Positions 21,458-39,136 are shown, counted from the stretch's first letter. The stretch: DNA of 64,000 nucleotides from Puniceicoccales bacterium (GCA_031257405.1 JAIROS010000002.1:10512-74511), one strand, 5' to 3'. A program made the numbers and translations. The notes: generated from the sequence alone by a model not told the origin.

Positions 21458-21533
<76 letters not shown>

Positions 21534-21639
21534 CCGACAGAGTCGAAATCCGCCGCGGGAGACATCACTTGACGACTCTCGGTTAGGAATTTGCGAATCG
21601 CAGGGCACTTGGTCAATCTTTATTTTGTATATTTGGTCT

Positions 21640-21884
21640 ATTTTTTTAATTGTCGAGTTTTCTCCGCCCCATTGGGCGATTTACGGCATAAAAAATCAAA
21701 AAAAGCAGATAAAGCATTTAAAAATAGAATAAAAAAATATCTCCAATCCAAAACAGTGGAGACTTCAAATCCGGAGCAGAAAATTTTTATCCGCCCCGGA
21801 TGAATTTTATTTAAATAAGTTTTACTTAATATTTAGATTTAGATGCCAGAAGCCCCCCTTCTGAAAGCCCCAATTCCGACCTAT
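21640..21884 (-). repeat. Ankyrin-cassette copy 0 (3'-flank of ank1; degenerate promoter half)
   Basis: Aligns by eye with the four other cassettes. It carries the hairpin ccggagcag...ccgccccgg (21771..21799), a CCATTGG box (21669..21675), and ttgtcgag in place of ctgtcaag. Confidence 0.8.
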
Positions 21885-22712
21885 CTAACGCCAAAAAAAT
21901 CCACCAGGAAAGAAATCACGTAGCCTCTCAAAATATGAAGCAGTATCTTCTTTATTACGCTCTTCGTTTGTTTTCCCTCCGTTCGCACGCAATAGAGCCA
22001 CTAAATCTTTCACTACTTCGTCCTTCAATCCCTTTTTATTCTGAAAAACCAAATCTATCGGGGTCTGGCCAGTATAAATGGGAGCCATTGAGGCTAAAAC
22101 TAGACCGGGAATATTATTAGTCCTAGTATTTACATCTGCGCCATTGTCCAGCAAAAATCGAACAACATTTTTGTGGCCATTCTCCGCGGCATAATGCAGA
22201 GGCGTTCGCCCTTGATTGTCCCTAGCATTCACTGGAATGTTGTTTCTAAGGACAAGGAATGTAACAATATCAAACTGGCCTCCCTCCGCGGCATAATGCA
22301 GCGCGGTCTTGCCCTGACCATCCTTAATTTTCTCATCTGCGCCATTGTCCAGCAAAAATCGAACAACCTTTTTGTGGCCATTCTCCGCGGCATAATGCAG
22401 CGCGGTCCTGCCCTCATTAAGACCACCTTTCGCCCCAGCATTCACATCTGCGCCATTGTCCAGCAAAAATTGAACAACATTTTTGTGGCCATTCTTCGCG
22501 GCATAATGCAGCGCAGTCTTGCCGTTGTTATCCCAATTTTTCACATTTTTGTCAGACATATTTCTCACGACACATTCGCAGTCGCCTTTTTTTGCGGCTT
22601 GAAAGAACCAGTCATCTCGAAACTCTTCACTCCCCAGAAGATAATTTGCACCTAAGAAGTAACTGCCCACTACCATATATTTAATCATACTTTTTTTATC
22701 TAACTTATTCAT
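21885..22712 (-). CDS. Ankyrin-repeat protein, paralogue 1 (leader type A: MNKLDKK...)
   Basis: 275-aa ORF with repeated 33-aa units (GKTALHYAAKNGHKNVVQFLLDNGADVNA...). It has an N-terminal Ser/Gly-rich hydrophobic leader and an AAAGGAAAA Shine-Dalgarno sequence upstream. Confidence 0.92.
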   Translation of the reverse strand: MNKLDKKSMIKYMVVGSYFLGANYLLGSEEFRDDWFFQAAKKGDCECVVRNMSDKNVKNWDNNGKTALHYAAKNGHKNVVQFLLDNGADVNAGAKGGLNEGRTALHYAAENGHKKVVRFLLDNGADEKIKDGQGKTALHYAAEGGQFDIVTFLVLRNNIPVNARDNQGRTPLHYAAENGHKNVVRFLLDNGADVNTRTNNIPGLVLASMAPIYTGQTPIDLVFQNKKGLKDEVVKDLVALLRANGGKTNEERNKEDTASYFERLRDFFPGGFFWR

Positions 22713-23036
22713 AATATTTTCCTTTCGGTAACCGAACTACCAAGCACATTAATTTCAATCTGTCAAGAACTTTTTTTTTATTTTTTTTGAAAAATTTAGC
22801 ACAGCCCGAAAATTCCCCGCTCCATTGGGCGAGTTGCGGTACAAAAATCAGAAAAATATTAAAAAACAAAATAAAAAACATCCCCAATCCAAAACGGCGG
22901 AGACTTCAAAACCGGAGCAGAGAATCTCTCCCCGCCCCGGATAAATTTTATTTAAATAAGTTTTATCTAATATTTAAATATATAAGTTTTACCTAATATT
23001 TAGGCGTTAATAAGCTCCGGCAGTACGTCTCTGTGC
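22713..23036 (-). repeat. Ankyrin-cassette copy 1 (between ank2 stop and ank1 start)
   Basis: Contains the hairpin (22912..22940), a CCATTGG box (22822..22828), a T-rich tract, and TTGACA (22761..22766) with TTGGTA (22738..22743). Confidence 0.85.
22738..22766 (-). promoter_or_regulatory. Putative promoter of ank1 (TTGACA-N17-TTGGTA)
   Basis: A perfect -35 hexamer preceded by an A-tract. The block TTGACAGATTGAAATTAATGTGCTTGGTA is identical upstream of ank4, and similarity stops right after TTGGTA. Confidence 0.5.
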
Positions 23037-23819
23037 CTAGGATTTAAAACCAGGCAGTTTCCGAAACCAGCTCCGCCAGCTCCTTTCTTGCAAGACTTCA
23101 GCGCCTGTTTTCGCTCCGCGTGCCAGCAATAGAGCCTTTATTTGTTCACGCCGGGCCCGATCCCGATTCTCACACTCCTCGACCAAATCTAGCGCGGTCT
23201 TGCCCTTATCCCGGCCACCAATCACCGTAACATTCACATTAATTCCAGGTGCAGTTAGCAACATTTCAACGATCTCTGTTTTGCCCCATCTTACGACATC
23301 ATGGAGCACGGTATAGCCATAGATATCCGCAGCATTCACATTAATGCCTCGTCTGCCTAGCAACAATCTAACGGTCTCTTTGTTCCTCTTGCGGAACTCT
23401 GTTACGGCCAAAGAAAGCGCGGTATAGCCACTATTGTCCTTAGCATTCACATCGGCGCCTGCGCCTAGCAATAAGTTAGCGTTATCTACGCGGCCATACA
23501 TTGCGGCCCAATGGAGCGGGGTCCTGTTCCATCTATCAGCCCTATCCCTAGCATTCACATCGGCGCCTGCGCCTAGCAACAATTTAACAACTTCTATATT
23601 ATCCCACTGTACGGCACAATGAAGCGCGGTCTCGCCGCCAATTTCACTCCTAGCATTCACATCAATGCCTCCGATTAACGCCGCCCGAACACCTGCTACA
23701 TCGCCCTTTGCTGCGGCTTGATGGAGCGGTGTCCATAGCCCCAGAAGACAATTTGTACTTAATAGGCAACTACTCGTTGCCACACATTGAACTATATTTT
23801 TTATATCTGCGTTTCGCAT
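23037..23819 (-). CDS. Ankyrin-repeat protein, paralogue 2 (leader type B: MRNADIKNIVQCVATS...)
   Basis: 260-aa ORF with ankyrin units (TPLHWAAMYGRVDNANLLLGAGADVNAKD...). Confidence 0.92.
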   Translation of the reverse strand: MRNADIKNIVQCVATSSCLLSTNCLLGLWTPLHQAAAKGDVAGVRAALIGGIDVNARSEIGGETALHCAVQWDNIEVVKLLLGAGADVNARDRADRWNRTPLHWAAMYGRVDNANLLLGAGADVNAKDNSGYTALSLAVTEFRKRNKETVRLLLGRRGINVNAADIYGYTVLHDVVRWGKTEIVEMLLTAPGINVNVTVIGGRDKGKTALDLVEECENRDRARREQIKALLLARGAKTGAEVLQERSWRSWFRKLPGFKS

Positions 23820-24134
23820 AACATATTGTACAATAATACATTTTTAACACTTGGCAAGAATTTTTTTATTTTTTTTTGAAAAATTTTAGCGTAACCTGAA
23901 AAATTTCCCCGTTCCATTGGGCGAGTTGCGGTACAAAAATCAGAAAAATATTAAAAAACAAAATAAAAAAAATATCCCCCATCCAAAACGGCGGAAACTT
24001 TAAAGCCGGAGCAGAAAAATTTTCCCACCCCGGACGAATTGTATCTAAATAAGTTTTACTTAATATTTAAACATATAAGTTTTACCTAAACTCAGGCATC
24101 AATCAACTCCTTTAATGAGCCTTCGCCGCCTCTA
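23820..24134 (-). repeat. Ankyrin-cassette copy 2 (between ank3 stop and ank2 start)
   Basis: Near-identical to copy 3 over about 250 bp. It carries the hairpin (24006..24033) and a CCATTGG box (23914..23920). Confidence 0.85.
23825..23857 (-). promoter_or_regulatory. Putative promoter of ank2 (TTGCCA ... TGTACAAT extended -10)
   Basis: The minus strand reads aaaaaaattcTTGCCAagtgttaaaaatgtattatTGTACAATatgttATG. The -10 lies only 5 nt from the ATG and no Shine-Dalgarno sequence is present. Confidence 0.4.
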
Positions 24135-24989
24135 TTATTCTTCTGAATCTAAATATGCTGCTGCTGCTTCTTCTGCTTCTTTTCGCTGCAGCCGCTTCTG
24201 CCTCCGCAAGCTCAGTATCCGTTTTTGCTCCGCGTGTCTATGCAATAGACCCACTACTTGGGTATGATCTCTCTCATAAGCCAAATCTAGCGCAGTTTTG
24301 CCTCTGTCATCCTTAGCATTCACATCGGCATCTTTCTTTAGCAACAATTCAACAACATCTACGTGACCCTTCGCCGCGGCCAAATGGAGCGCAGTCTCGC
24401 CTTTCTCGCCTTTAGCATTTACATTTGCGCCTGCGTTTATCAATAATTTGACGGGGACTTCGAGGCCCACTACTGCGGCGTTATGAAGCGCCGTCCAGCC
24501 CTTTTCCTCGCCATTACTCACCGTAGCATTCACATTAATGCCAGGTGCAGCTAGCAACAGTTTAACAGCCTTTTTTTGGCCCCAGTCTGCGGCAGTATGG
24601 AGAGGAGTGTAGCCATTTTCGTTCGTAACATTCACGTCCGCTCCTGCGTCTATTAACATTCCAACGACCCTTCCGTAGCTGTCAAATGCTGCGGCCAAAT
24701 TGAGCGCGGTATCGCCACCATCAGTCTTAGCATTCACATCAATGTCGGGCATATCTAGTAATATTTTAACGATCTTTGGGGATCTCGGTGTGACCAAATG
24801 GAGCGCTGTCCAGCCCTCTTCATTCTTAGCATTCACATCAATGCCTCCGATTAACGCCGCCCGAACACCTGCTAAATCGCCATTCGCTGCGGCTTTATGG
24901 AGCGCGGTAGTCCCCAGACAACTTACACTTAAGAAGCAACCACTCGTTGCCACACATTGAACTATATTTTTTATATCTGCGTTTCGCAT
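24135..24989 (-). CDS. Ankyrin-repeat protein, paralogue 3 (leader type B)
   Basis: 284-aa ORF. The first 16 residues are identical to ank2, followed by ankyrin units (GWTALHLV..., GETALHLAAAKGHVDVVELLLKKDADVNAKD). Confidence 0.92.
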   Translation of the reverse strand: MRNADIKNIVQCVATSGCFLSVSCLGTTALHKAAANGDLAGVRAALIGGIDVNAKNEEGWTALHLVTPRSPKIVKILLDMPDIDVNAKTDGGDTALNLAAAFDSYGRVVGMLIDAGADVNVTNENGYTPLHTAADWGQKKAVKLLLAAPGINVNATVSNGEEKGWTALHNAAVVGLEVPVKLLINAGANVNAKGEKGETALHLAAAKGHVDVVELLLKKDADVNAKDDRGKTALDLAYERDHTQVVGLLHRHAEQKRILSLRRQKRLQRKEAEEAAAAYLDSEE

Positions 24990-25338
24990 AACATATTGTA
25001 CAATAATACATTTTTAACACTTGGCAAGAATTTTTTTATTTTTTTTGAAAAATTTTAGCGTAACCTGAAAAATTTCCCCGTTCCATTGGATGAGTTGCGG
25101 TACAAAAAACAGAAAAAAACCTAAAAACAAAATAAAAAAAATATCCCCCATCCAAAACGGCGGAAACTTTAAAGCCGGAGCAGAAAAATTTTCCCACCCC
25201 GGACGAATTGTATCTAAATAAGCTTTACTTAATATTTAAACATATAAGTTTTACCTAAACTCAGGCATCAATCCGCTCCTTCAAGACGTCGCGCCTCTGC
25301 TTCAAGTTCTTCAGCTCTCGCCTGAAGCCCTTGTGCCT
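24990..25338 (-). repeat. Ankyrin-cassette copy 3 (between ank4 stop and ank3 start)
   Basis: Same module as copy 2, with the hairpin (25175..25202) and a CCATTGG box (25092..25098). Confidence 0.85.
24995..25027 (-). promoter_or_regulatory. Putative promoter of ank3 (same TTGCCA / TGTACAAT block as ank2)
   Basis: Sequence identical to the ank2 upstream block. Confidence 0.4.
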
Positions 25339-26736
25339 CTATTCTTCTTCTTCTTCAAGTTCAGCGCCTCTTTTCGCTCCACGTGCCAGCAATAGATCCC
25401 TTATTTGGGTATAATTTCCACGATTAGCAAAATCTAACGCAGTCTCGCCATATTCAACCTTAGCATTCACATCGGCATCTTTCTCTAGCAACAATTTAAC
25501 AACATCTACGTGGCCCTTCGTCGCGGCCACATGGAGCGGCGTATAGCCATTTTTATTCTTAGCATTCACATCTAGGCCGTCCGCAGCTAGCAACGCTTCT
25601 ACGGCCTTTACGTAGCCCTTCTGTAGGGCTAAATCTAACGCTGTCTTGCCATCTTCAGCCGTAGCATTCACATCGGCATCTTTCTCTAGCAACAATTGAA
25701 CAACATCTACGTAGCCCTTCTGTAGAGCTAAATCTAACGCAGTCTCGCCATATTTATTCTCAGCATCCACATCAATGCCGGGTGCAGTTAGCAACAATTT
25801 AACGAAATTCAAATTGTCATTCATTGCGGCATAATGGAGCGCCGTATAGCTTGTGTTATCCTTAGCATTCACATCTGCATTTTTTTTTAGTAACAATTGA
25901 ACAACCTCTACGTAGCCATTCAGTGCGGCCTTAATGAACGCTGTCTCGCCATATTTATCTTTAGCATTCACATCTGCATTTTTTTCTAGCAACGCTTTAA
26001 CAACATCTACGTGGCCCTTCGTCGCGGCCACATGGAGCGCCGTCTTGCCTAATTTATCCTTAGCATTCACCACAATGTTGGATACAGCTAGCAACGATTT
26101 AACAACATCTACGTGGCCATTCTCTGCGGCCAAATGGAGCGCGGTCTGGTCCAAGAAATTCACAACATTCACATTTGCGCCGAAATACATAAGAGATTTA
26201 GCAACAGCTACGTGGCCATTCTCTGCGGCATAATGGAGCGGCGTATAGCGGTAGCTATCCTTAATATCCACTGCTGCGCCTCTAATGGGGATAAAGTATC
26301 TAACAATATCCAAGTGGCCCATCTTTGCGGCCAAATGGAGCGCCGTTTTGCCTCCGTTATCCCTAGCATCCATATTTGCCTCTAATTTTAGCAACTTTTT
26401 TACGATATCGCAGTGACCATTTTCTGCGGCATAATGGAGTGCCGTCTTACTCTTACCCTTACCATCAGTCACCTTAGCATTCACATCTATGCCGTAATTC
26501 ATAAGAAATTCAACGACATTCAAACGGTTATTCGCTGCAGCCTCAATGAACGCGTTCTGGATTTTTTCGTTCTTACCATTTATCTCAATGAGGGATATTG
26601 CATTTTCAACGCCTTCTAAATCGCCATCTCTTGCGGCCTCAATGAGCGCGGTAGCCCCCTGAAGATAACTTGCACCTAAGAGGTAACTACTCACTACCAA
26701 ACCTTTAATTATATTTTTTTTATCTAACTTATTCAT
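25339..26736 (-). CDS. Ankyrin-repeat protein, paralogue 4 (leader type A)
   Basis: The ORF track gives 25339..26781. The ATG at 26736 (MNKLDKKNIIKGLVVSSYLLGASYLQG) matches the ank1 start and has the same Shine-Dalgarno sequence. It contains about 12 ankyrin units. Confidence 0.92.
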   Translation of the reverse strand: MNKLDKKNIIKGLVVSSYLLGASYLQGATALIEAARDGDLEGVENAISLIEINGKNEKIQNAFIEAAANNRLNVVEFLMNYGIDVNAKVTDGKGKSKTALHYAAENGHCDIVKKLLKLEANMDARDNGGKTALHLAAKMGHLDIVRYFIPIRGAAVDIKDSYRYTPLHYAAENGHVAVAKSLMYFGANVNVVNFLDQTALHLAAENGHVDVVKSLLAVSNIVVNAKDKLGKTALHVAATKGHVDVVKALLEKNADVNAKDKYGETAFIKAALNGYVEVVQLLLKKNADVNAKDNTSYTALHYAAMNDNLNFVKLLLTAPGIDVDAENKYGETALDLALQKGYVDVVQLLLEKDADVNATAEDGKTALDLALQKGYVKAVEALLAADGLDVNAKNKNGYTPLHVAATKGHVDVVKLLLEKDADVNAKVEYGETALDFANRGNYTQIRDLLLARGAKRGAELEEEEE

Positions 26737-27010
26737 AATATTTTCCTTTCGACGACGACATACCAAGCACATTAATTTCAATCTGTCAAGAACTTTTTTT
26801 TATTTTTTTGAAAAAAATTTAGCACAGCCTGAAAATTCCCCGCTCCATTGGGCGAGTTATAATACATAAAATCAGAAAAAATATTTAAAAATAGAATAAA
26901 AATATCACTCATTACATTAATTTCAATCTGTCAAGCTTTTTTTATATTTTTTTGAAGAAATTTTCCCGCTCCATTGGGTAAGTTGCGGTACAAAAAACAG
27001 AAAAAAACCT
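26737..27010 (-). repeat. Ankyrin-cassette copy 4, with two promoter modules in tandem
   Basis: TTGACA at 26784..26789 is the functional ank4 copy, and a second one lies at 26929..26934 with no ORF behind it. There are two CCATTGG boxes (26845..26851 and 26971..26977). Confidence 0.8.
26761..26789 (-). promoter_or_regulatory. Putative promoter of ank4 (TTGACA-N17-TTGGTA)
   Basis: Identical 29-nt block to the ank1 promoter. Confidence 0.5.
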
Positions 27011-27205
27011 AAAAACGAAATGAAAGATGGCTTTTCGGCCTTTTAATCGAAGAATTTTCGGTAAAAATATCCATTAAATTTTATCAATAAAACACATCTC
27101 TCGAGTGTGCTTTTTGTCGGCGACTTCAGCCGCAACCCATCGCTTTTCGGCCCCTTAGTCGAAGAATTTTCTTGCCGCCACCAATTATTTTATATTTTTT
27201 TGACC

Positions 27206-28153
27206 GTGAATATTCTAATGACAGGCGCCGGCGGGTACATCGGTAACCACTGCACGCTGAAACTCCTCCCCTCAGGACACTCCCTCTTCGGCCTCGACGC
27301 CGTAAAACCTAAATATACATCCCTTTTCCGAAATTTTTACACCGGTGACCACGGCAATACCGCTCTGGTACAACGCATTCTAAAGGAGGAGCGCATCGAG
27401 TGTATCATCCACGCTTCCGGCTCGTCAAACGTCATGGATACGGTCCAAAACCCAATAAAATATTACTGCAACGACCTCATGGGAACTATATTCCTCCTCC
27501 AAACGGCCCTTGAAAATAATGTGAAAAAATTAGTTTTTCTCTCTTCGGCGCAGGTCTACGGCAACAGCTCGCCACTGTCGGCCACGGAAAATACGTCGCC
27601 CAATCCTATTAATCCAATGGGGAAAATAAAGCTCGCCATCGAACAATTAATCGAGTCGCTGTCAATTTCTCACGACCTGCACTACGCCATTTTACGGATT
27701 TCAAACGCCATTGGTATGGATCATCAGGCGGAAAATTTCCCGTCCAATGGCGACCTGCTCTCCCAAATATTACTCAATGAGTCGCTCGACCTGTTCGGCA
27801 CCGATTTTAATACGGCGGATCATCGGGCGGAACGCGATTTTATCCATGTCAATGATGTGGCGCAGGCCGTTTTACAGGTACTGCCAAAACTCGGCGGCTT
27901 CCAAAAGAATTTTTGCTACAACATTGCTTCTGGCAAGAGTTATTCGGTGGCGGATTTCGTCAAATTTGTTGAAAAAGCGGCGCATTTGACCGTCACCATT
28001 GATCCTCGGGAGCGGCGGAGCGGCGAAATCGAACGCCTCGCCATCGACCCGTACTCTGCCCAACGGGAACTCGGCTGGCGCCCGCAATATTCGTTGGAAT
28101 ACATGATCGAATCAAGCGTCAATTGGCTCAAAACTCACGAAATCTGCATCTAA
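27206..28153 (+). CDS. NAD-dependent epimerase/dehydratase, GalE-like, catalytic Tyr replaced
   Basis: The ORF track gives 27107..28153. The likely start is GTG 27206 or ATG 27218, before the Rossmann motif MTGAGGYIGNH. FLSSAQVYG is conserved, but the YxxxK motif reads MGKIK. Confidence 0.8.
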   Translation: MNILMTGAGGYIGNHCTLKLLPSGHSLFGLDAVKPKYTSLFRNFYTGDHGNTALVQRILKEERIECIIHASGSSNVMDTVQNPIKYYCNDLMGTIFLLQTALENNVKKLVFLSSAQVYGNSSPLSATENTSPNPINPMGKIKLAIEQLIESLSISHDLHYAILRISNAIGMDHQAENFPSNGDLLSQILLNESLDLFGTDFNTADHRAERDFIHVNDVAQAVLQVLPKLGGFQKNFCYNIASGKSYSVADFVKFVEKAAHLTVTIDPRERRSGEIERLAIDPYSAQRELGWRPQYSLEYMIESSVNWLKTHEICI

Positions 28154-28159
28154 CTTGAA

Positions 28160-28545
28160 CTAAAAATCCCCCATTGTCAAGACGTTTTTCGGAAATGTTT
28201 TGAAAACTAAATATCTCGGCCTGGAAAAATAAAAAATAACACCAGCGAAAATTAGAATTCCAAACGCGGCATTCTCCCCACCCTCTGCACCTAGCCAATC
28301 AGAAAAATTTCCAATTGTCAAGGCGTTTTTTGGAAATATTTTAAAAATTAAATATTTCGATTCGGGAAAGTGAAAAATAACACCAGCGGAAATTAGAATT
28401 CCAAACGCGGCATTCTCCCCGCCCCATGTACATAGCCAATCAGAAAAATTTCCAATTGTCAAGGCGTTTTTTGGAAATATTTCAAAAATTAAATATCTCG
28501 ATTCGGAAAAGTGAAAAATCAAACAATCGCACAATACTTACCCAA
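28160..28545. repeat. Tandem repeat, 141-bp period, about 2.7 copies
   Basis: The anchor ttgtcaa recurs at 28174, 28315 and 28456. Each unit carries a minus-strand TTGACA-N17-TTGGCT plus GGGGCGGGGAGAATGCCGCGTTTGGAATTC. Confidence 0.9.
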
Positions 28546-28632
28546 TCCGCTAAACTTTTTCACCTTATCCCAAAATTTCATACTTTACTATTGCCAAAAT
28601 ATATAAAATTCTTCCCATCTCCCATAACCCCG

Positions 28633-28709
28633 CGGGGCGTAGCTCAGCTTGGTAGAGCGCATGTTTTGGGTACATGAAGTCATCGGTTCGAGTCCGGTCG
28701 CCCCGACCA
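28633..28709 (+). tRNA. trnP: tRNA-Pro (anticodon TGG)
   Basis: Hand-folded: CGGGGCG-TA-GCTC-AGCTTGGTA-GAGC-G-CATGT-TTTGGGT-ACATG-AAGTC-ATCGG-TTCGAGT-CCGGT-CGCCCCG-A-CCA. Confidence 0.92.
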
Positions 28710-30761
28710 CCAGCCAATACCAGAAAATATCGCCCCACCCCTCTCCTCAAAATTAATCGCCTCAAAAAAATCCCGGCCAACCTCCCGAATAAATCGACTG
28801 CGCTGCAAAGGTGCCGGAAAATAATTCTTCTTACCATCCACAACCGCCTGGCTCGGCACACATAAATATAATTCCCGCCGCGCCCGCGTCACCGCTACAT
28901 AAAATAACCGCCGCTCTTCGCGAATTTCCTCCTCCGCTACCGCCCGCTTCAAAGGAAAACTGTTTTCGTTGAGCCCAATGATGAATACCGCCGCAAATTC
29001 TAGCCCCTTCGCCTGATGCACCGTACTTAAACGCAAACTCTCCGCCATATTCGCATCCTCCCCATTCGACTCCGATTGCAATAGCGCCACCTGCTGGATC
29101 AACTCCGATAAATCCCGAAATTTACCGCAAAAATTCGCAAACCCCTCAACGTCATCCCAACGCGCCTGCCAATTCGTATAATTCCGTTTCAAATACTCGC
29201 CATATTCGCCGTCGAGGATGAAAAAAATCATTTCGCCGATGCCCTCAAAAGATATCGATTTTTCCGCCGTTTGCTGCGCGCATTCGAAGAGATCCGCCGG
29301 GGGACGCGGAGGCTGATCCCCGCAAAAATCTGACGCACCGGAGTACAACCCCCGTAAAACACGCGTAAAAGGCCACCAATATTCCAACGCCGCCGCCGGA
29401 ATTTTCTTGACAATTTCCTCCTCCTCAAATAACGAAAAAAGATCCCGCCGCGCCATCTCGGCCGACTGCTGCAAATACAGTAAAATGCGCTCCGCCGTCT
29501 TCTCACCGACCTTCGGAAAACGACACAATAGCCGCACAAATGCCCGCGAATCCCGCGGATTGATAATAAAACGTAAAAATGATAAAATATCTTTGATATG
29601 CGCCTGCTCGAAAAATCGCACGCCACTCGTGATCGCGTAAGGAATATTGTGGCGCGTCAGCTCCATTTGCAGCTCCATCGACTGGTAATGCGCCCGGTAC
29701 AAAACGGCGATCTCCGATAGCGGGTAGCCCTCGCCGAGTAAGCCGGTCAGCCGCTTAATGATGAAATTTGCCTGTTGGCGCGCGTCGAGTACGGAGACGA
29801 CGAGGGGTTTGCGGAAGGCATTTTTCGTCGACCTCAAAATCTTCGCGTACTCAAACTTCTCCGCTACGGGAATCTCGTTCGCAAAATCCAGGATCTCCGG
29901 CGTACTGCGATAATTCACCTGCACCTTCGTCACCCTCGTCTGCGGGTACCGCTGCGGGAATTCGATAATGCTCCTAATATCCGCGCCGCGCCAGGTGTAA
30001 ATGCATTGCGCATCGTCGCCCACCGCAAAAATTTGTCCATTTTGCGCCATTAGGTCGATCATTTTCAGCTGAATCGGGTTGGTATCCTGATATTCGTCGA
30101 CTAAAATGTGGCGAAATTGCTGGTTATAGTGCGCTGCGACGTCCGGTTTTTCCTCCAATAACCGCACAAAATGGCACAGCAAATCGTCGTAATCCATAGC
30201 ATTTTGCTCGGATTTGATCGATTGGTAGCGGTCGATAAAGCGCTTCAGCATTCCCCCGTGATCCGCCAGATAGGGGTATTTTTCCTCGATCACGCGCGCC
30301 ACCGTCCGCATCGCATTGCGCGAAAAACTCACCACCTCAAACAGTACGCGTGCCGTCGGATTACTCTTATTCTTCGGGAAATCGGGCGCAATCGACCGCA
30401 TGGCGCCGTCAAATAACGCCAGCGAATCGTCCTCATCGAGAATAACAAAATTAGGATTTTCCATGTGGCGCCGCAGTAAACGCTGGCAGATGTGGTGGAA
30501 AGTGCCCCCATAAAATAAATTATTTGTAAATCCCGTCAACGCCTCCACGCGCTGGAGCATTTCTCGCGCGGCCTTATTGGTAAAAGTGAGGAGGAGAATA
30601 TTTTCCGGCGACGCGCCTTTTTCGAGTAACCAAGCCACGCGGTAGGTCAACGTCCGTGTTTTTCCGGTCCCCGCACCCGCTAAAATGAGGTTTGTCGGGC
30701 TTTGGGAAATAACGGCCGCGTACTGTTCTTCATTGAGTTCTGTTTCGAAATCGATCGCCAT
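28680..30761 (-). CDS. UvrD/PcrA/Rep-family ATP-dependent DNA helicase
   Basis: 693-aa ORF with Walker A (AGAGTGKTRT), motif II (VDEYQDTN), and LTFTNKAAREM. The last 30 nt of the ORF overlap tRNA-Pro. Confidence 0.9.
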   Translation of the reverse strand: MAIDFETELNEEQYAAVISQSPTNLILAGAGTGKTRTLTYRVAWLLEKGASPENILLLTFTNKAAREMLQRVEALTGFTNNLFYGGTFHHICQRLLRRHMENPNFVILDEDDSLALFDGAMRSIAPDFPKNKSNPTARVLFEVVSFSRNAMRTVARVIEEKYPYLADHGGMLKRFIDRYQSIKSEQNAMDYDDLLCHFVRLLEEKPDVAAHYNQQFRHILVDEYQDTNPIQLKMIDLMAQNGQIFAVGDDAQCIYTWRGADIRSIIEFPQRYPQTRVTKVQVNYRSTPEILDFANEIPVAEKFEYAKILRSTKNAFRKPLVVSVLDARQQANFIIKRLTGLLGEGYPLSEIAVLYRAHYQSMELQMELTRHNIPYAITSGVRFFEQAHIKDILSFLRFIINPRDSRAFVRLLCRFPKVGEKTAERILLYLQQSAEMARRDLFSLFEEEEIVKKIPAAALEYWWPFTRVLRGLYSGASDFCGDQPPRPPADLFECAQQTAEKSISFEGIGEMIFFILDGEYGEYLKRNYTNWQARWDDVEGFANFCGKFRDLSELIQQVALLQSESNGEDANMAESLRLSTVHQAKGLEFAAVFIIGLNENSFPLKRAVAEEEIREERRLFYVAVTRARRELYLCVPSQAVVDGKKNYFPAPLQRSRFIREVGRDFFEAINFEERGGAIFSGIGWWSGRPDSNR

Positions 30762-30764
30762 CCG

Positions 30765-31700
30765 CTAAAGGAAACGGCCCATTCGACTTTTGGCAACTTT
30801 TATATCGTGGCGGATTTGGTCCACGAGGAGCACCTGCGACGTAAATTGTTTTTCCCGGCGAATATGGCTCCAAAATTGGACCTCGATCGGCAAACTCTGC
30901 CCGTGGAGAACAACCGGATCGAAACTGTGGACCTCCAAACTAACCCCCGAAACTTCCCGAAAAAACGTCGGACGCGTGCCAAAATTCGCTACACCCCAAG
31001 TGAATTCCCCCTCGCTATTGAGGCGGTAGCGGACTAAATAGACGCCCAATTTCAGCAGCAACTCATTTTCGAAGCGCACGTTCAGCGTCGGGTAGCCCAA
31101 TTTTCGCGCGATCCCGCGGCCAGTAAAAGTCGTCCCCAGCATGTAATAGGGAAACCCCAGCATGCGATTGGCGCGATCCACGTAGCCGTCGCTGAGGCAC
31201 TTGCGGACGTTCGAACTGCTCACCCGCTGACTCTCAAAAAATACCGACTTCTGAATCGTAACGCCAAAATCGCGCGATAAATCCTGTAAAAGCCACGGAT
31301 CGCCCTCGCAACCTTGGCCAAATTTAAAATTCTCTCCGACGCAAATCCCTACCAATTTGGGGAATTTTTTTTGTAATAAAATAGTAAAATTTCTCGCCCT
31401 GATCGCGCCAAACGCCTCCGTAAAACACTGCTCAACGAAGTAATCCACCGCCAACAATTCCAACCGTTCGATTTTTTGTTCCCGCGTCAAAATAAGCTTT
31501 TTGGGGCGATTCAAAATCACCGACGGGTGGGGCCAAAAGGAGTAGACAACGGCCGCTGCCCGGAGCCGTTGCGCTTCATTTTTCGCCGAAATGATGACCG
31601 CTTGGTGCCCGATGTGCAGGCCGTCGAAAGCCCCCACCGCTAGCACAACAGGCCGCTCAATGGGAACAAAATCGTCCTTCGCCGTCAAAATTCGCTCCAT
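30765..31700 (-). CDS. ribF: Bifunctional riboflavin kinase / FMN adenylyltransferase
   Basis: 311-aa ORF (VLAVGAFDGLHIGHQ... plus a C-terminal kinase domain GRGIARKLGYPTLN). It follows truB, as is usual. Confidence 0.9.
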   Translation of the reverse strand: MERILTAKDDFVPIERPVVLAVGAFDGLHIGHQAVIISAKNEAQRLRAAAVVYSFWPHPSVILNRPKKLILTREQKIERLELLAVDYFVEQCFTEAFGAIRARNFTILLQKKFPKLVGICVGENFKFGQGCEGDPWLLQDLSRDFGVTIQKSVFFESQRVSSSNVRKCLSDGYVDRANRMLGFPYYMLGTTFTGRGIARKLGYPTLNVRFENELLLKLGVYLVRYRLNSEGEFTWGVANFGTRPTFFREVSGVSLEVHSFDPVVLHGQSLPIEVQFWSHIRREKQFTSQVLLVDQIRHDIKVAKSRMGRFL

Positions 31701-31706
31701 GACCGC

Positions 31707-32393
31707 TCACAGAATATCCGTAATCGGCAGGAGGCAATGCTCAATTTCGCGGCATTCCATGGCGAGCAAACGGTCCAACGGCACCGCCCGCTCCAGAGGA
31801 AAATGCCCCGTTTTCGTCCGCCGCAAATCCGATAAATAAGCCCCGCAAGCCAACTTTTGCCCCATATCGTGCACCAGCGTCCGCACGTAAGTCCCCTTCG
31901 AACACGTTACCGTAAAATTTACCTTGGGGAGCGCCACTTTTTGAATAAAAAATTCGTAAATTTTTACCGGTCGCGGCTCCCGTTCAATCGTTTCCCCTCG
32001 GCGCGCCCACTTGTAAAGCGGCTGGCCATTGATTTTTTTCGCCGAAAACATAGGGGGTAACTGCCACTGATCGCCCAAAAATTGCTGCGCACATCGGCGA
32101 ATTTCCTGCTCCGATACTCGAATTTCACGGGTCGCGACGACTTCGCCCTCCCGATCGTAGGAATCCGTCTCTTGCCCCAAACGGAGCGCTCCGGCGTAAG
32201 TTTTGTCCTGGTTGGTGACGTACTGGGAAATTTTCGTCGCATTGCCGATAAGTAAAATGAGGAGTCCCGTCGCCATCGGATCTAGAGTCCCCGCGTGGCC
32301 GATTTTCCGAATCCCTAGACGGTGGCGCAACTTGGCTACGACATCGTGAGACGTCCATCCAGACGGCTTATCAACTAATAAAATGCCATTCAT
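31707..32393 (-). CDS. truB: tRNA pseudouridine-55 synthase
   Basis: 228-aa ORF (NGILLVDKPSGWTSHDVV..LR......KIGHAGTLDPMATGLL). Confidence 0.94.
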   Translation of the reverse strand: MNGILLVDKPSGWTSHDVVAKLRHRLGIRKIGHAGTLDPMATGLLILLIGNATKISQYVTNQDKTYAGALRLGQETDSYDREGEVVATREIRVSEQEIRRCAQQFLGDQWQLPPMFSAKKINGQPLYKWARRGETIEREPRPVKIYEFFIQKVALPKVNFTVTCSKGTYVRTLVHDMGQKLACGAYLSDLRRTKTGHFPLERAVPLDRLLAMECREIEHCLLPITDIL

Positions 32394-33388
32394 AAATGGT
32401 TTTCAGAGAAGGAATTCAGGTGCACTTGCAACGCATTTATAAATGTTTTTTCAAACTTTACGTAGGGATCACTCACCGTAAACGCTACCGCGCAAAAATG
32501 CCCCCCTCCAAAAAATTTGGCCGCAAAAAGATCCAACCGTAACCCCGGATCGTCCGAACGCAAACTAATGCGCGTCTTCCCCTCCCGATCGTAGGCAATC
32601 GCCGCAACCCGTACCCCCTTTATCGTGCGCGGAAAATTCACCAATCCCTCCGTATCCGCCGCCACCGTCCCCGTCTCAACAAAATCCCGCTCCGTTACCC
32701 GTCCCACACAAATCGTACCATCGGCGTAAAATTTTAAAGAACCTAAAAATCGCTGCATGAGCGCAAATTTTTCCCGCGACTCATTCTCGTAAATTTCAAG
32801 GAAAATGCGATGGGGCTCCGCGCCTTGTAGGGCGAGTTGCGAGGCCAAAAATAGGGTACGGGCCGCCGTCGATGAGTAGCTGAATTTCCCCGTATCGGTG
32901 ACGATCCCGACGTACAACGCCGTCGCCGTACGTTCCCCGATGGGCCATTTTTTCTGGTCGACGAAATCCGCAATAACCTCACAAGTCGCCGCCGCTTCGG
33001 GGTAAAAAAAATTATACTGCGCAAACCGCTCCCCCGAAATGTGGTGATCGATGAGCATCAGTGGCCGGGGCAATTTTTTAGCAAAATCGCCAGCCCGTAC
33101 CATAATCCCGCAATCCACAAAAATATATTCGTCGGCAACAATCTCCTCCGCCTTAACCAATTCCCACTGCCCACTCAACCACCGCAAATTGGCCGCGATG
33201 GGCTCATCCTGCAGCCCCATGATCGGGACCGCACCGCACCGCGTCAGGATATCATGCATGGCGATTTGTGCCCCCAAACAGTCGCCGTCCGGATGCAAGT
33301 GCCCCAGAATCCCGACCCGTTTCCCTTGCAATTGCTCGCAAATGGAAAAAAATGTTTCGGCGCCATCGAAGCGCTCGAGTGCCCTCAT
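32390..33388 (-). CDS. DHH-family phosphoesterase (NrnA-like)
   Basis: The ORF track gives 32390..33433. The ATG at 33388 abuts the tal stop. Motifs: HLHPDGDCLG, FVDCG, LIDHH and GGGH. Confidence 0.85.
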   Translation of the reverse strand: MRALERFDGAETFFSICEQLQGKRVGILGHLHPDGDCLGAQIAMHDILTRCGAVPIMGLQDEPIAANLRWLSGQWELVKAEEIVADEYIFVDCGIMVRAGDFAKKLPRPLMLIDHHISGERFAQYNFFYPEAAATCEVIADFVDQKKWPIGERTATALYVGIVTDTGKFSYSSTAARTLFLASQLALQGAEPHRIFLEIYENESREKFALMQRFLGSLKFYADGTICVGRVTERDFVETGTVAADTEGLVNFPRTIKGVRVAAIAYDREGKTRISLRSDDPGLRLDLFAAKFFGGGHFCAVAFTVSDPYVKFEKTFINALQVHLNSFSENHL

Positions 33389-34311
33389 AGCTGCGCCCCG
33401 ACGAGTTCCCTCAGCCGGCGAATATCGCGGCAAAAAAGACGGATCCCCTCCGATAATTTCTCCTCCGCCATCCGATTTTCATTGAGCGACAGCCGGAAAT
33501 CGGACTCCCTGAGCTGTAATTTTGGCCCGGAAATATCCCCCTCCAACGCACCCATTTTATCCTCCACAACACCCTCCATCTGCGCCAATTCGCCGAGGAA
33601 TTTCGGGTTAATGGTGAGTAGATCGCAGCCCGCCAGCGCCAAAATCTCGTCCACATCGCGAAAACTAGCCGCCATGATCTCCGTCCTGTAGCCCCATTTT
33701 TTGTAGTAGGCGAAAATTTTCCGCACCGACTCCACCCCCGGATCAAAATGATCAGCCAAAATCTCGGGATTATTCAGCTTGTACCAGTCCAAAATGCGGC
33801 CCACAAACGGCGAAATGAGCGTCACGCCGGCCTCCGCACACGCCACCGCCTGCTCCAAAGAAAATATTAGCGTCATATTGCAGTGAATGCCGCCCTCTTC
33901 GAGGACCCGCGCCGCCCGAATACCCTCCCACGTCGCCGCAATTTTTATGAGAACAGATTGGCGCGAAATCCCCTTCGCACGATACAAATCCGCCAACGTC
34001 TGCGCCCTGTCGACCGTCGCCGCAACGTCGAATGACAAATGGGCGTCGACCTCCGTCGAAACGCGGCCAGGAATAATTTTCAAAATCTCTACCCCCATCT
34101 CAACAATAAGGCGATCCATTATTTGCTCCACACCCAGACCATCGTAAAATGTCAAGATATTTTTCAAAAAATATGGATTTTGGGCGACAGTATTGAGTAC
34201 AATGGACGGATTGGTCGTCGCATCCCGCGGTAAAAATTTCTCAATCGCCGCCAAGTCTCCCGTGTCGGCAGCAATCCTGGAAAACGCCCTGAGTTGATCC
34301 AATAAATGCAT
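33385..34311 (-). CDS. tal: Transaldolase
   Basis: The ORF track gives 33385..34371. The ATG at 34311 gives MHLLDQLRAFSRIAADTGDLAAIEKF..RDATTNPS, the canonical transaldolase N-terminus. The IKIA.TWEGI lysine motif is present. Confidence 0.92.
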   Translation of the reverse strand: MHLLDQLRAFSRIAADTGDLAAIEKFLPRDATTNPSIVLNTVAQNPYFLKNILTFYDGLGVEQIMDRLIVEMGVEILKIIPGRVSTEVDAHLSFDVAATVDRAQTLADLYRAKGISRQSVLIKIAATWEGIRAARVLEEGGIHCNMTLIFSLEQAVACAEAGVTLISPFVGRILDWYKLNNPEILADHFDPGVESVRKIFAYYKKWGYRTEIMAASFRDVDEILALAGCDLLTINPKFLGELAQMEGVVEDKMGALEGDISGPKLQLRESDFRLSLNENRMAEEKLSEGIRLFCRDIRRLRELVGAQL

Positions 34312-34551
34312 CGGCCCCTGGATAAATAAAACGCCCCAAAAAGCAATCCATTTTACTTGCTTCGCGGCCATATTGATACAATTTATCCGCTACATATGTT
34401 GCATGCGTTGTTATTTTTTGTTTTGTTGGCGCTGATCCCTTTATTGGGCTAAAAAAAGAAATGCTCGGAAAGTGTACGCCTTCGAACCCGTCCGTAAAAG
34501 TTTTACATTTTGGCGCACAAATGCGGCCTCTATTTTTACAAAACTCGCCGC

Positions 34552-35142
34552 CTATTCCCCAATTTGAAAGCGCGCAAAACGACTAATGCGAATATTTTCG
34601 CCGATGATCGCTATCGTCGCCGCGATGTGATCGTTTACCGTTTTTTCCTGATCCTTTACAAAAGGCTGCTCCAGCAGGCAAATTTGCTGGTACCACTTGT
34701 CCAACTTCCCCTCAACAATTTTATCGATGGCGTGCTGCGGTTTGCCCTGCGCCTGAGCACCCGCAATCTCCCTTTCACCGCCAACCACGTCGGCCGGAAT
34801 ATCCTTGCGGGCAATGTACAACGGGTTCGCCGCCGCAATGTGCATGCAAATGTCACGCGCCAGTTGCCTAAATTCCGAATTTTTGGCGACAAAATCAGTC
34901 TCGCAATTGAGCTCCAGGAGCACGCCGATGCGCCCGCCGCCGTGAATGTAAGATTCCACGATCCCCTCGTTCGCCTCGCGCCCTAACTTCTTCGCCGCCG
35001 TCGCAATGCCTCTTTTCTTCAAAATTGTGATCGCCCGCTCAAAATCGCCTTCCGCTTCGACAAGCGCCCTCTTGCAATCCACAAAACCCGCCCCCGTACT
35101 CCCGCGGAGATCACTCACCAATTTCGCACTAATTTCCACCAT
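34552..35142 (-). CDS. tsf: Elongation factor Ts
   Basis: 196-aa ORF (LR..TGAGF.DCK.AL.EA.GD.E.A...L...G) immediately after rpsB. Confidence 0.93.
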   Translation of the reverse strand: MVEISAKLVSDLRGSTGAGFVDCKRALVEAEGDFERAITILKKRGIATAAKKLGREANEGIVESYIHGGGRIGVLLELNCETDFVAKNSEFRQLARDICMHIAAANPLYIARKDIPADVVGGEREIAGAQAQGKPQHAIDKIVEGKLDKWYQQICLLEQPFVKDQEKTVNDHIAATIAIIGENIRISRFARFQIGE

Positions 35143-35151
35143 TTTCGCTCC

Positions 35152-36072
35152 CTATGCTTCACTTTCCGACGCCTTTTCGTCCGATTTTTCCTCCGATTTT
35201 CCCGCCGTAGGACGCCTTTTCCGCGGTACGGCAGGCTTCTCGCGACTCGCAATCGCCGCTTCCTCGTCCTTCACCGTCACCTTCTCAGCCCCACTCTCAA
35301 GAGCCGCATCCATCGTCACCCCGTCGCCGCCAGCTAACTCCCCTTTCGTTACAATTTTTTGCCGCTGCCGCTGACCGGATTGCTTCGCCTCGTAAGCCGC
35401 TTGTCCCGTTTTGATCGCGTCGACAACGGCTTCCAAAATAATCCGGATCGATTTCGTCGAATCGTCGTTGGCCGGAATGGGGTAAGTCACCTGCGTCGGG
35501 TCGGAATTCGTATCGACCATCGCCACAACGGGAATATTAAGGCGCTTCGCCTCCGCCGCCGCAATATCCTCATGGTACACATCCACAATAAACAACGCAT
35601 CGGGCAGGTCATTCACCGCCAACATCCCCTCAAAACCGCGCTGCATCCGCGCCATCTGCCGACGAATTACCGCCGCTTCCTTCTTCAACATCGCAGCCAA
35701 TGAACCGTCCGCTTCCATGGTTAAAAATCGACGATATTTGTTTAAACTGCGCCTAACGGTCTCAAAATTCGTCAAACACCCGCCTAGCCAACGACTCACG
35801 CAAAACGGCATTTCCACCGAAATCGCCGCCTCCCGTACAAACTCTTGCGCCTGCTTTTTCGTCGCAACAAATAAAATCTGCCGCCCCTTAGCCGCCAGTT
35901 CCTGCAGAAACGCACACGCATCTCCGAGACACTGATACGTTTTTTCGAGATCAATAATCGAAATACCACCCCTATGGTCGTAGATGAAATTTTTGGACTT
36001 GGGATTCCAGCGGCGTTTTTGGTGGCCGAGATGCACCCCCGCTTCAAACAAATCACTAATGCTAATATTCAT
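35152..36072 (-). CDS. rpsB: 30S ribosomal protein S2, with a charged C-terminal extension
   Basis: 306-aa ORF (LFEAGVHLGHQKRRWNPK...FVATKKQAQ...). The last 70 aa or so are Lys/Glu/Ser-rich, beyond the usual S2 core. Confidence 0.95.
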   Translation of the reverse strand: MNISISDLFEAGVHLGHQKRRWNPKSKNFIYDHRGGISIIDLEKTYQCLGDACAFLQELAAKGRQILFVATKKQAQEFVREAAISVEMPFCVSRWLGGCLTNFETVRRSLNKYRRFLTMEADGSLAAMLKKEAAVIRRQMARMQRGFEGMLAVNDLPDALFIVDVYHEDIAAAEAKRLNIPVVAMVDTNSDPTQVTYPIPANDDSTKSIRIILEAVVDAIKTGQAAYEAKQSGQRQRQKIVTKGELAGGDGVTMDAALESGAEKVTVKDEEAAIASREKPAVPRKRRPTAGKSEEKSDEKASESEA

Positions 36073-36182
36073 GTTGTGCTCCGTACCCGCGAAGGAGCGC
36101 AGACTCTCCAGAACCGCTCCTCACGACCCCAAAAACACACGCTCGCCCTCCGCAGACCTTGGATAAATTTTGACTATGGCCC

Positions 36183-36211
36183 CAATAATTTCTTTTTTTT
36201 CATAATTTCAA
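36183..36211 (-). promoter_or_regulatory. Putative rpsB-tsf promoter (AAAAATAGC-TTGAAA)
   Basis: The minus strand reads ctaaaaaatagcTTGAAAttatgaaaaaaaagaaaTTATTGggg, directly after the ispH stop. The same AAATAGCTTGA architecture occurs at other genes. Confidence 0.3.
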
Positions 36212-36212
36212 G

Positions 36213-37118
36213 CTATTTTTTAGAAATTTCATCAAAAATTTGCTGCAAAACGTCCCGTGGCGTCGATGCACCGGCCGCGATGCCGATTTTTTTGTAGGAC
36301 GCGAGATCGAGTGCCGCCGCCTGCGCAACGCCTTCTACCCAAAAAACGCGGGAGCCCCATGCCCCAATTTTTTCAAATAAACGCCGCGTATTCGCCGAGT
36401 GAAATCCGCCTACAACGATCGCCGCGTCGCAGTTTTTCAGTGCTTCGAGACCTAATTGCCGCGCCTTTGTCGCCGGACAAATTGTGTCAAAAATTTTAGC
36501 AGGGAAATGTTTTTTTTTACATAAAATGCTTGCCGCTTTCAAAAAATCTATATCCAATGTGGACTGGCAGATTATAACCCAATCGCACGTTTCGCCGGGA
36601 TCAGGATTTTTATTTTTACAAATATTTACATTATCTTTATAATTATAGCGCACGGCATCGATGTATTGCGCCAGTTCCGCGAGATTTCCACAAACGCAAA
36701 TATTCCCAGAATAACCGCATAATCCCTCGATCTCCGCGTGGTCGCGATCCCCCAAAAGAATGATTTTTTTACATTTATTGGCCTCGATCGTCCGCGCAAT
36801 GCGACGCACCAAAGGACAAGTGCAATCCACAATTTTACATCCAAAATTTTCTAAATAAAGGCGGCGCCCCGGCGAAATCCCGTGGGCACGGACGATGATC
36901 GTATCCCCACCGCAAACCACCGAATCCCGCCGCAACAGCCGCATCCCTAACGCCCATAATCGCTCATTCACCGCGCCATTGTGTACCAATTCGCCCTCCA
37001 AAAAAATATGCCCGCACTGCCTATTTTGCGCCACATTTAACACTTTTTTTACGGCAGCCGCGACGCCCCCACAAAACCCGGAAGCGGGAGCCATAATCAC
37101 TTCGCGACCTCCGCTCAT
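36213..37118 (-). CDS. ispH: 4-hydroxy-3-methylbut-2-enyl diphosphate reductase
   Basis: 301-aa ORF (GFCGGV..AV...; VRAHG.SP; three conserved Cys; STLD). Its start overlaps the fabD stop (ATGA). Confidence 0.9.
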   Translation of the reverse strand: MSGGREVIMAPASGFCGGVAAAVKKVLNVAQNRQCGHIFLEGELVHNGAVNERLWALGMRLLRRDSVVCGGDTIIVRAHGISPGRRLYLENFGCKIVDCTCPLVRRIARTIEANKCKKIILLGDRDHAEIEGLCGYSGNICVCGNLAELAQYIDAVRYNYKDNVNICKNKNPDPGETCDWVIICQSTLDIDFLKAASILCKKKHFPAKIFDTICPATKARQLGLEALKNCDAAIVVGGFHSANTRRLFEKIGAWGSRVFWVEGVAQAAALDLASYKKIGIAAGASTPRDVLQQIFDEISKK

Positions 37119-38038: not shown

Positions 38039-38170
38039 CGCTAACTATTTAATGCAAACGGATCAGATGTCCAGCTATTTCACTGAACTTACTTTTTTTT
38101 AAAAAATTTCACAAAATAAAAACAATAAAAGACCCCGCCTGCGCAGCGCCTTACTCCGATAAACAAAATT

Positions 38171-38569: not shown

Positions 38570-38573
38570 AATG

Positions 38574-39005: not shown

Positions 39006-39042
39006 ACCACACTCACAGGCCTAACTCGCCCTAACTCCTGCA

Positions 39043-39070
39043 ACGCTAAATTCGCTCCAACCTTTGTCAA
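39043..39070 (-). promoter_or_regulatory. Putative rplM-rpsI promoter (TTGACA-N16-TAGCGT)
   Basis: The minus strand reads aataaaaaaggcTTGACAaaggttggagcgaattTAGCGT, 37 nt upstream of the rplM ATG. Confidence 0.35.
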
Positions 39071-39136
39071 GCCTTTTTTATTAAAAATTTTAGCAGCCGC
39101 CCCGCCGCCGTCGCCACAAATTTTAACACCCTCAAA

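Follow-up and report, generated by a model that had tools for sequence, protein, structure and literature searches.

Near-identical spacers between divergent ankyrin-repeat genes in a tandem array upstream of tuf in a Puniceicoccales genome

How can the DNA between tandem genes stay nearly identical while the genes themselves diverge? This question is raised by four tandem, co-oriented ankyrin-repeat (ANK) genes, ank1 to ank4, which lie on the minus strand directly upstream of tRNA-Thr (array 21885-26736) in a stretch of 64,000 nucleotides (nt) from a Puniceicoccales bacterium (GCA_031257405.1, JAIROS010000002.1:10512-74511), hereafter called the window. A unit of about 300 base pairs (bp) recurs at the gene boundaries of this array, and we consider it likely that this unit represents the terminator–promoter punctuation of the tandem ank genes, homogenised by recombination at a hotspot of ANK genes.

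Gene bodies and their flanks

The four spacers of the array measure 349, 315, 324 and 351 nt (24990-25338, 23820-24134, 22713-23036 and 21534-21884), have a G+C content of 32-38% and, as revealed by alignment, are collinear among themselves and also with the region that precedes ank4. In a sliding comparison of the paralogues, the spacers and both gene ends were 70-100% identical and the ANK bodies 30-60%; the gene bodies are thus more diverged than their flanks, which is the opposite of simple divergence after duplication. The flanks of ank3 and ank2 display 95% identity over 254 nt, with an identical run of 105 nt (25046-24942) that ends exactly at codon 16 and is followed by 80-95% identity, with gaps, up to about codon 64; the tract 25284-24797 contains 43 mismatches in 498 columns. 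An identical run of 41 nt (26801-26761) is common to the promoters of ank4 and ank1. A first-pass annotation of this DNA had described the ank2 and ank3 copies as near-identical over about 250 bp and into the first 16 codons, just as we found, and had noted an identical block of 29 nt in the ank1 and ank4 promoters, where the real run is longer. The near-identical unit has the spacer at its centre, flanked by the 3' end of the preceding gene and by the first 16-64 codons of the following one. Sawyer-type permutation tests yielded P<5e-4 in all six pairs for the best high-similarity segment and, with one pair excepted, for the longest identical run as well.

The modules of the array form a mosaic. 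Two versions of a T-rich tract (T-tract) occur in the spacers, namely alpha in the ank4–ank3 spacer and in an orphan promoter module upstream of ank4, and beta in the ank3–ank2 and ank2–ank1 spacers, with diverged beta-like tracts in the ank4 promoter module and in the spacer between ank1 and tRNA-Thr. These two versions are found with two promoter types, A and B, in all four combinations, and among the four genes the 5' ends (A or B) and the 3' ends (X or Y) are likewise combined in all four ways.

Related loci from Puniceicoccales metagenome-assembled genomes (MAGs), whose EF-Tu is 93-97% identical to that of the window, provided further insight into the origin of this likeness. Between the window and the close relative L026, housekeeping genes share 92-94% DNA identity, with 79-85% at third codon positions, and the spacers above ank1 and above tRNA-Thr, which exist in both genomes, were compared in a four-sequence alignment. 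The promoter-proximal halves grouped by position, whereas the 5' half of a box motif grouped by genome (TCGCCCAATGG versus TTG[CT]GGCCTGG, that is CGCCCAATGG versus GGCCTGG), and an insertion of 75-90 nt, containing a hairpin (hairpin 2) and the T-tract, is present in both window copies and in neither L026 copy. The same pattern, with its own variant of the box, was seen in L024, and identity breaks at the same place, just past the box. Paralogous spacers are 96-100% identical, compared with about 83% for the orthologous ank1 promoter and 5' untranslated region (5'UTR) of the window and L026, and the ANK gene behind this conserved type A promoter in L026 has only 39% amino acid identity to ank1 beyond the signal peptide.

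Were the array a plain recent tandem duplication of genes together with their flanks, the likeness of the spacers would be a leftover, with no ongoing conversion. The units are indeed tandem, co-oriented and regularly spaced, with 1092-1169 nt from start to start, and besides their promoters ank2 and ank3, as well as ank1 and ank4, have N-terminal codons in common. Such an origin, however, predicts the opposite of spacers this alike next to bodies with 34-50% identity in protein, and it fits neither near-identity centred on the spacer rather than on the gene, nor the presence of all four module combinations, nor the lineage-specific insertions that two positions older than the split from L026 have in common. 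We regard this explanation as very unlikely and already largely refuted, and gene plus cassette, named in the first-pass annotation as the unit of duplication, does not suffice as that unit, its bodies being far more diverged and its identity centred on the spacer. The same annotation had offered regular gene conversion of the flanks as the alternative, which agrees with the contrast between flanks and bodies, the permutation, the mosaic modules and the grouping with L026. The flank pattern supports gene conversion or unequal crossing-over, and repeated events of both kinds would keep the spacers and both gene ends alike, while the ANK bodies would diverge or be reshuffled.

Architecture and confinement of the spacer unit

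On the minus strand, the unit runs in the order TAAAACTTAT repeats, hairpin 1, hairpin 2 with a U-run, T-tract, box with a CCAATGG core, A-tract and -35 hexamer; the single G/C hairpin per cassette of the first-pass annotation has to be replaced by two. A short stretch past each stop codon may be the relic of an older C-terminal coding end (KE[RL]IDA or ELINA before a stop). The TAAAACTTAT repeats occur as a pair, a 26-nt tandem duplication of which each copy is a small palindrome, TAAGTAAAACTTA, at 25218-25253, 24049-24084 and 22956-22991, and as a single copy at 21815-21824. Hairpin 1 (25175-25202, 24006-24033, 22912-22940 and 21771-21799) forms a stem of 12 bp with many G-U pairs. Every pair is maintained among 10 copies from seven genomes, five of the 12 with compensatory double changes, and this covariation shows the structure of hairpin 1 to be genuinely conserved. 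A T-run directly follows it in the relatives, which means that hairpin 1 would be a canonical intrinsic terminator there.

Hairpin 2 with its U-run (25120-25170; other stems 23969-24001, 22880-22904 and 21739-21763), likely an intrinsic terminator, is present with a T-run in four of four complete cassettes and absent from those of L026. The fold of both hairpins reaches -28 to -29 kcal/mol (z -2.6 to -4.4) and has a U-rich tail, and together they would act as the Rho-independent terminator of the upstream gene. A search against known RNA families, at gathering and at relaxed thresholds, gave no match. Small open reading frames (ORFs) on the minus strand of the T-tract and A-tract, encoding hydrophobic-then-basic peptides, were rejected as coding by inspection, since their frame is not conserved between copies. 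The T-tract above the box and the A-tract below it are complementary (15-27 nt, 75-94%) in every cassette (22774-22878, 23861-23971, 25031-25140 and 26797-26902), which would allow a long AT stem with the box in its loop, possibly as a mere effect of low complexity.

Past the box follow an A7-9 T A7-9 tract and the -35 hexamer. The two promoter types are homologous from the box to -35 (P<=0.001) and divergent past -35. Type A, present at ank1, at ank4 and in the orphan module, carries TTGACA, and the 5'UTRs of ank1 and ank4, with a length of about 35 nt, contain a AAAGGAAAA Shine-Dalgarno sequence. Type B (ank2, 23820-23857; ank3, 24990-25027) consists of TTGCCA, 16 nt and TATTGT, and both copies were called by the promoter scan. 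Its -10 ends 10 nt before the ATG and no Shine-Dalgarno sequence is present, so the mRNAs of ank2 and ank3 are probably leaderless or nearly so. According to our proposal, the T-tract, the lineage-specific CCAATGG segment, the A-tract, the sigma-70-type -35 (TTGACA in type A, TTGCCA in type B), the 5'UTR and the signal-peptide codons would form the start of the next gene; with a terminator and a promoter in each spacer, each ank gene would be a transcription unit of its own.

The box might instead be the site of a regulator that controls the ank genes together with tRNA-Thr–tuf, the likeness of the spacers then being due to purifying selection on a common regulatory region. Its distance to -35 is fixed (55-56 nt in four ank promoters and 52 nt at tRNA-Thr), it is confined to the array, and it is kept ahead of the tuf operon. 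In the relatives, however, its position is taken by GGCCTGGAGCGG (L026) or CATGGAGWAGA (L024), and L027, L028 and L029 revealed no such motif; since the CCAATGG core differs from species to species, it is unlikely to represent a conserved regulator site. Moreover, the conservation of the ank1 promoter and 5'UTR in L026 (83%) is about that of housekeeping third positions, as for roughly neutral sequence, and obviously non-functional parts, namely the 26-nt duplication and the relic coding stretch, are equally identical between paralogues. We consider common regulation through the box improbable.

Two further candidates for the origin or role of the box were rejected. The 16-mer CCCCGCTCCATTGGGC of the box (plus strand, 22815-22830 and 26838-26853) is the exact reverse complement of the TPLHWA codons of ank2 (23506-23521, minus strand), where 0.07 inverted matches with up to two mismatches would be expected; the likeness is limited to 16 nt. 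A derivation of box and T-tract from an eroded antisense ANK repeat is contradicted by this short length and by the antisense translations, which had no Pfam match even at E up to 10. A sigma-54 site on the plus strand was dismissed by inspection for its wrong spacing.

In total, the array contains four complete cassettes and two promoter-only modules and thus six boxes, with CCAATGG cores at 21669-75, 22822-28, 23914-20, 25083-89, 26845-51 and 26971-77. The five collinear copies reported earlier stand as ordered collinear blocks in the alignment, and it is their number and completeness that change. Three of the complete cassettes separate ank genes: ank4/ank3 (24990-25338) and ank3/ank2 (23820-24134), both of 3' type X and promoter type B (TTGCCA at 25022-25027 and TATTGT at 25000-25005 in the former; TTGCCA at 23852-23857, a 16-nt spacer and TATTGT at 23830-23835 in the latter), and ank2/ank1 (22713-23036) of 3' type Y and promoter type A (TTGACA at 22761-22766). 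The extended box (AAMTYRYCCAATGGRRCGGRRAA / CAACTCGCCCAATGGAGCGGGGAA) showed five to seven matches in the 64 kb, all but one within spacers, against 0.00-0.24 expected from shuffles. For TAAAACTTAT, with at most one mismatch, there are 14 matches versus 5.6 expected, half of them (7/14) being the repeats of the four spacers and an eighth (22941-22950) likewise lying within the ank2–ank1 spacer. By nhmmer profiles, four matches of the 3' module and six of the central/5' module were found, every one in the array, and no other place in the window came below E = 0.1 with either profile.

A structured hairpin repeat between single-gene units, at a site whose gene content differs between genomes, could also suggest a mobile or site-specific element, be it a repeat like a miniature inverted-repeat transposable element (MITE) or a repetitive extragenic palindrome (REP), or an integron attC-like site. 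The 64-kb window, however, holds no copy elsewhere, and an exact scan for the degenerate box had no real match in GTDB representatives, JGI (Joint Genome Institute) metagenome contigs and viral contigs: 13 single GTDB, eight single JGI and no viral matches were obtained from these collections, which do not hold the source genome, and BLAST of the loci gave 27-28-nt chance matches. No integrase or transposase was found among ten neighbouring genes scanned with Pfam (28.7-40.5 kb, all housekeeping), and none is annotated at the loci of the relatives. No terminal inverted repeats are present; apart from the hairpins, there is just the trivial pairing of T-tract and A-tract. In the relatives, hairpin and T-run would act as an ordinary terminator and, unlike integron cassettes, each ank unit has its own promoter. 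A mobile origin is, in our opinion, extremely improbable.

The spacer between ank1 and tRNA-Thr (21534-21884, minus strand) is a hybrid: a 3' module, T-tract and box paralogous to those of the ank cassettes are fused to the native tRNA-Thr–tuf promoter (TTGACC at 21611-21616). Past the box it continues with AAAATAAAGATTGACCAAGTG...CAAATT, a stretch that is 84-93% identical upstream of tRNA-Thr in L023, L024, L026, L027, L028 and L029 and also present at the L030 site, which is empty of ANK genes. Downstream of the box, the tRNA-Thr–tuf promoter displays no significant likeness to the ank promoters (P = 0.23-0.35). Conserved in relatives and unlike the ank promoters, this part is the native promoter of tRNA-Thr–tuf and not a member of the ank family, as which the lowest copy had been listed in the first-pass annotation. 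On the same P values, the idea that the ank promoters were derived from the tuf promoter was dropped. The converted tract would halt at the box before the tRNA-Thr–tuf promoter, presumably through purifying selection on that promoter.

Both promoter-only modules lie upstream of ank4 on the minus strand. That of ank4 itself (26737-26913) consists of a remnant of the hairpin-2 3' arm, T-tract, box (26845-26851), A-tract, TTGACA (26784-26789) and a 5'UTR with the AAAGGAAAA Shine-Dalgarno sequence. The orphan module (26914-27025) has an alpha T-tract, 91% identical to the copy in the ank4–ank3 spacer, a box, a 19-nt deletion, an A-tract and a -35, and is truncated after TTAATGT. Its TTGACA (26929-26934) and CCATTGG (26971-26977) are present as annotated before, as is every other feature coordinate of that annotation which was checked. 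After the A-tract come TTGACAGATTGAAATTAATGT and then AATGAGTGATATTTTTATTCTATTTTTAAAT; the latter corresponds to part of a terminator module, namely the hairpin-2 3' arm and the T-tract (cf. GGATTGGAGATATTTTTTTATTCTATTTTTAAAT, located below ank1). This break fits an internal deletion with one end near the transcription start of a fifth unit and the other at the terminator hairpin of that unit, and the orphan would be the footprint of an internal deletion or unequal crossover which removed a fifth gene. It shares just 70% identity with the neighbouring ank4 module and therefore does not stem from a recent tandem duplication. The earlier suggestion of a lost fifth paralogue is thus plausible, given the break into a terminator remnant, though not proven, and the accompanying statement that no ORF lies behind the module needs qualifying: ank4 starts about 190 nt downstream, and since no intact hairpin is left in between, transcripts from the orphan would run into ank4, of which it may be a second promoter.

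Several points weigh against homogenised terminator–promoter punctuation as proposed here. Terminator and promoter activity are read from sequence alone; the hairpins escaped the consensus terminator scan, a miss that we attribute to their bulges and G-U pairs, and the -10 of type A is poor (TTGGTA, 17 nt spacing) and was not called by the consensus scan. The search for cassette copies covered the 64-kb window, so that copies may exist elsewhere in the genome. The permutation test presumes uniform constraint along the unit, the grouping by genome rests mainly on L026, which is close, and L024, which is more distant, and strong purifying selection on regulatory DNA could add to the likeness of the flanks.

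The ank genes and their variable junction

All four genes were delimited as minus-strand ORFs and match Pfam Ank (E 1e-39 to 1e-150). Type A N-termini are found in ank1 (21885-22712, 275 amino acids, MNKLDKK...) and ank4 (25339-26736, 465 amino acids when counted from its ATG at 26736; in the ORF list it begins with the TTG at 26781), and type B N-termini (MRNADIKN...) in ank2 (23037-23819, 260 amino acids) and ank3 (24135-24989, 284 amino acids), which share their first 16 codons. A family signal peptide, M.K...KNIIKY.A.[GS][SG]C LL....L.G, is similar in most full-length ANK genes on the tuf strand, including those of the relatives; exceptions are L027 and L029, which lack it, and two inverted genes of L028, which are more diverged. 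The lipobox-like motif [IMT][SG][SG]C occurs in ank2 (as TSSC), ank3 and genes of the relatives, whereas ank1 and ank4 have Tyr in place of its Cys (N-termini 22632-22712, 23739-23819, 24909-24989 and 26656-26736). The genes of the array probably encode signal-peptide proteins, putative lipoproteins, and the exchange of Cys for Tyr suggests a shift to soluble or uncleaved forms in ank1 and ank4. Inside single genes, the ANK repeats are homogenised as well: in ank4 (25427-26178) they are 88-93% identical, with periods of 99, 201 and 300 nt, and in ank1 (22117-22544) 93-98%, far above the likeness between genes.

With a conserved promoter and signal peptide on highly divergent bodies, diverged even from the closest relative (39% amino acid identity), and lipobox-like N-termini in some of the proteins, the array might also be a contingency locus for phase or antigen variation, in which slippage-prone A/T homopolymers switch ANK lipoproteins and promote recombination of the bodies. 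Tracts of A7-A9 do lie upstream of -35, and the otherwise near-identical spacers upstream of ank3 and ank2 differ as A8 versus A9. These homopolymers, however, are located upstream of -35, outside both the -35/-10 spacer and the coding sequence, so that a switch is not obvious, and the scan of ten neighbouring genes revealed neither an invertase nor a recombinase. We consider such a locus unlikely. Equally doubtful is a wider version, in which the cassette would be a diversification scaffold of host-associated Puniceicoccales, offering homology for the swapping and reshuffling of ANK bodies in a contingency locus of surface or secreted ANK lipoproteins near tuf, with slippage in the A-tract tuning expression and the box, as an inverted copy of the TPLHWA codons, perhaps serving as a pairing or recombination site.

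An exact-protein look-up gave no record for ank1 and ank2, and the same kind of look-up for tuf and nusG returned only short, fragmented Logan contigs of this organism from SRR14710907. A homologue search with ank3 among 5.8 billion proteins revealed only generic ANK proteins of at most 49% identity, which means that the body of ank3 has no close relatives on record. No relevant paper was found in the literature on Puniceicoccales with ankyrin, symbiont or endosymbiont.

The array is bounded by tRNA-Thr(GGT) (21458-21533, minus strand), the first gene of the tRNA-Thr–tuf unit, within a minus-strand cluster tRNA-Thr–tuf–tRNA-Trp–secE–nusG–rplKAJL–rpoBC; EF-Tu of the window is 85-97% identical to proteins named "MAG: Puniceicoccales bacterium". 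On the other side, a gene for an NAD-dependent epimerase (about 27215-28153, plus strand, by Pfam) diverges from the array. No further ANK genes were found within the window. Counted between the epimerase (or contig end) and tRNA-Thr–tuf, the number of ANK genes varies between genomes: none in L030 (EF-Tu 93%), where the epimerase adjoins tuf, and in L025 (96%); one each in L023 and L029 (94-95%); at least one in L027 (95%), whose contig begins inside the gene; at least two each in L024 (95%) and L026 (97%); three in L028 (93%), two of them inverted; and four plus one remnant in the window. The junction of epimerase and tRNA-Thr–tuf is a clade-wide variable hotspot for the gain and loss of ANK genes. 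From genome to genome, this hotspot contains between zero and four ANK genes, or five if the remnant is counted.

Other features of the surroundings concern gene order and repeats. A block of TruB–DHH–transaldolase–EF-Ts–S2–LytB–FabD–S9–L13–MgtE (28680-40516) is co-oriented with tuf here and opposite to tuf in L030 (1-9810), which indicates an inversion with one breakpoint near the epimerase, a set of 141-nt repeats and tRNA-Pro. These repeats (28162-28584, about three tandem copies, 84-88% identical) separate the 3' end of the epimerase gene from tRNA-Pro, at a site of inverted gene order compared with L030, and on the minus strand their units carry CTTGACAATTGGAAATT, resembling CTTGACAGATTGAAATT, the core of the type A promoter. 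Another long tandem repeat (62043-62415) has a period of 154 nt, 2.4 copies and 91% matches. Between the orphan module and the epimerase start, a segment of about 40 nt, GAAAATTCTTCGAYTAARRGGCCGAAAAGC, is present twice, about 115 nt apart (27030-27060 and 27135-27175); the copy proximal to the epimerase has a counterpart in L023, and the pair may represent another partial duplication within the region of the divergent promoters. The plus-strand GC skew is very strong (-0.2 to -0.4) over positions 1-40000, where nearly all genes lie on the minus strand, and weaker past about 40 kb, where the gene strand changes.

Known systems and significance

Classic examples of concerted evolution in bacteria are tufA/tufB and the rRNA operons. 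The ank array resembles such families in that paralogues within a genome are closer than positional orthologues and in showing mosaic tracts and significantly long identical fragments. In tuf and rRNA genes, however, the functional core is homogenised, whereas in the ank array it is mainly the non-coding spacer and the gene ends, and the central bodies escape. For bacterial multigene families in general, the framework of Santoyo & Romero 2005, as taken up in PMC4209131, describes concerted evolution by gene conversion. Tandem arrays of F-box, BTB, LRR and ANK proteins in symbionts of the Planctomycetes–Verrucomicrobia–Chlamydiae (PVC) group have been reported to undergo birth-and-death evolution (Domman et al. 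2014, PMC4209131). Those arrays likewise belong to PVC bacteria and consist of tandem repeat proteins of the host-interaction type, with gains and losses, intergenic pseudogene remnants and varying copy number. Their coding regions cluster between species (PMC4209131), whereas the flanks of the ank array cluster within species. Unlike them, the ank array is small, with four genes, and sits at one fixed site by tuf.

The variable lipoproteins of mycoplasmas (vlp, vsp, vsa) combine a conserved promoter and prolipoprotein signal peptide with divergent repetitive bodies, are clustered and have homopolymers near the promoter. Similarly, the ank array has a conserved 5' cassette and signal peptide ahead of a variable repetitive body. 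It differs in that there is no homopolymer in the -35/-10 spacer, that no site-specific invertase was found, and that ANK repeats are folded protein-interaction modules and not low-complexity surface repeats. As for the spacers, a GC-containing hairpin followed by a U-run, and A-tracts before TTGACA, are reminiscent of intrinsic terminators and of sigma-70 promoters with UP elements. Unlike the standard forms, they have two hairpins with numerous bulges and G-U pairs, the U-run of the first having been lost in this lineage, and a type A -10 that is off consensus.

As a case of array evolution the locus is clean but ordinary, and the current understanding of how such arrays evolve is unchanged by it. 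It is, at the same time, a compact and well-resolved case of concerted evolution of non-coding punctuation while the coding bodies diversify, in a poorly studied verrucomicrobial lineage. The repeats account for breaks in short-read assemblies at this locus, and the spacers provide candidate native terminator and promoter parts for Puniceicoccales. Finally, the junction between epimerase and tRNA-Thr–tuf is marked as a hotspot of gain and loss of ANK genes, which are candidate host-interaction factors.

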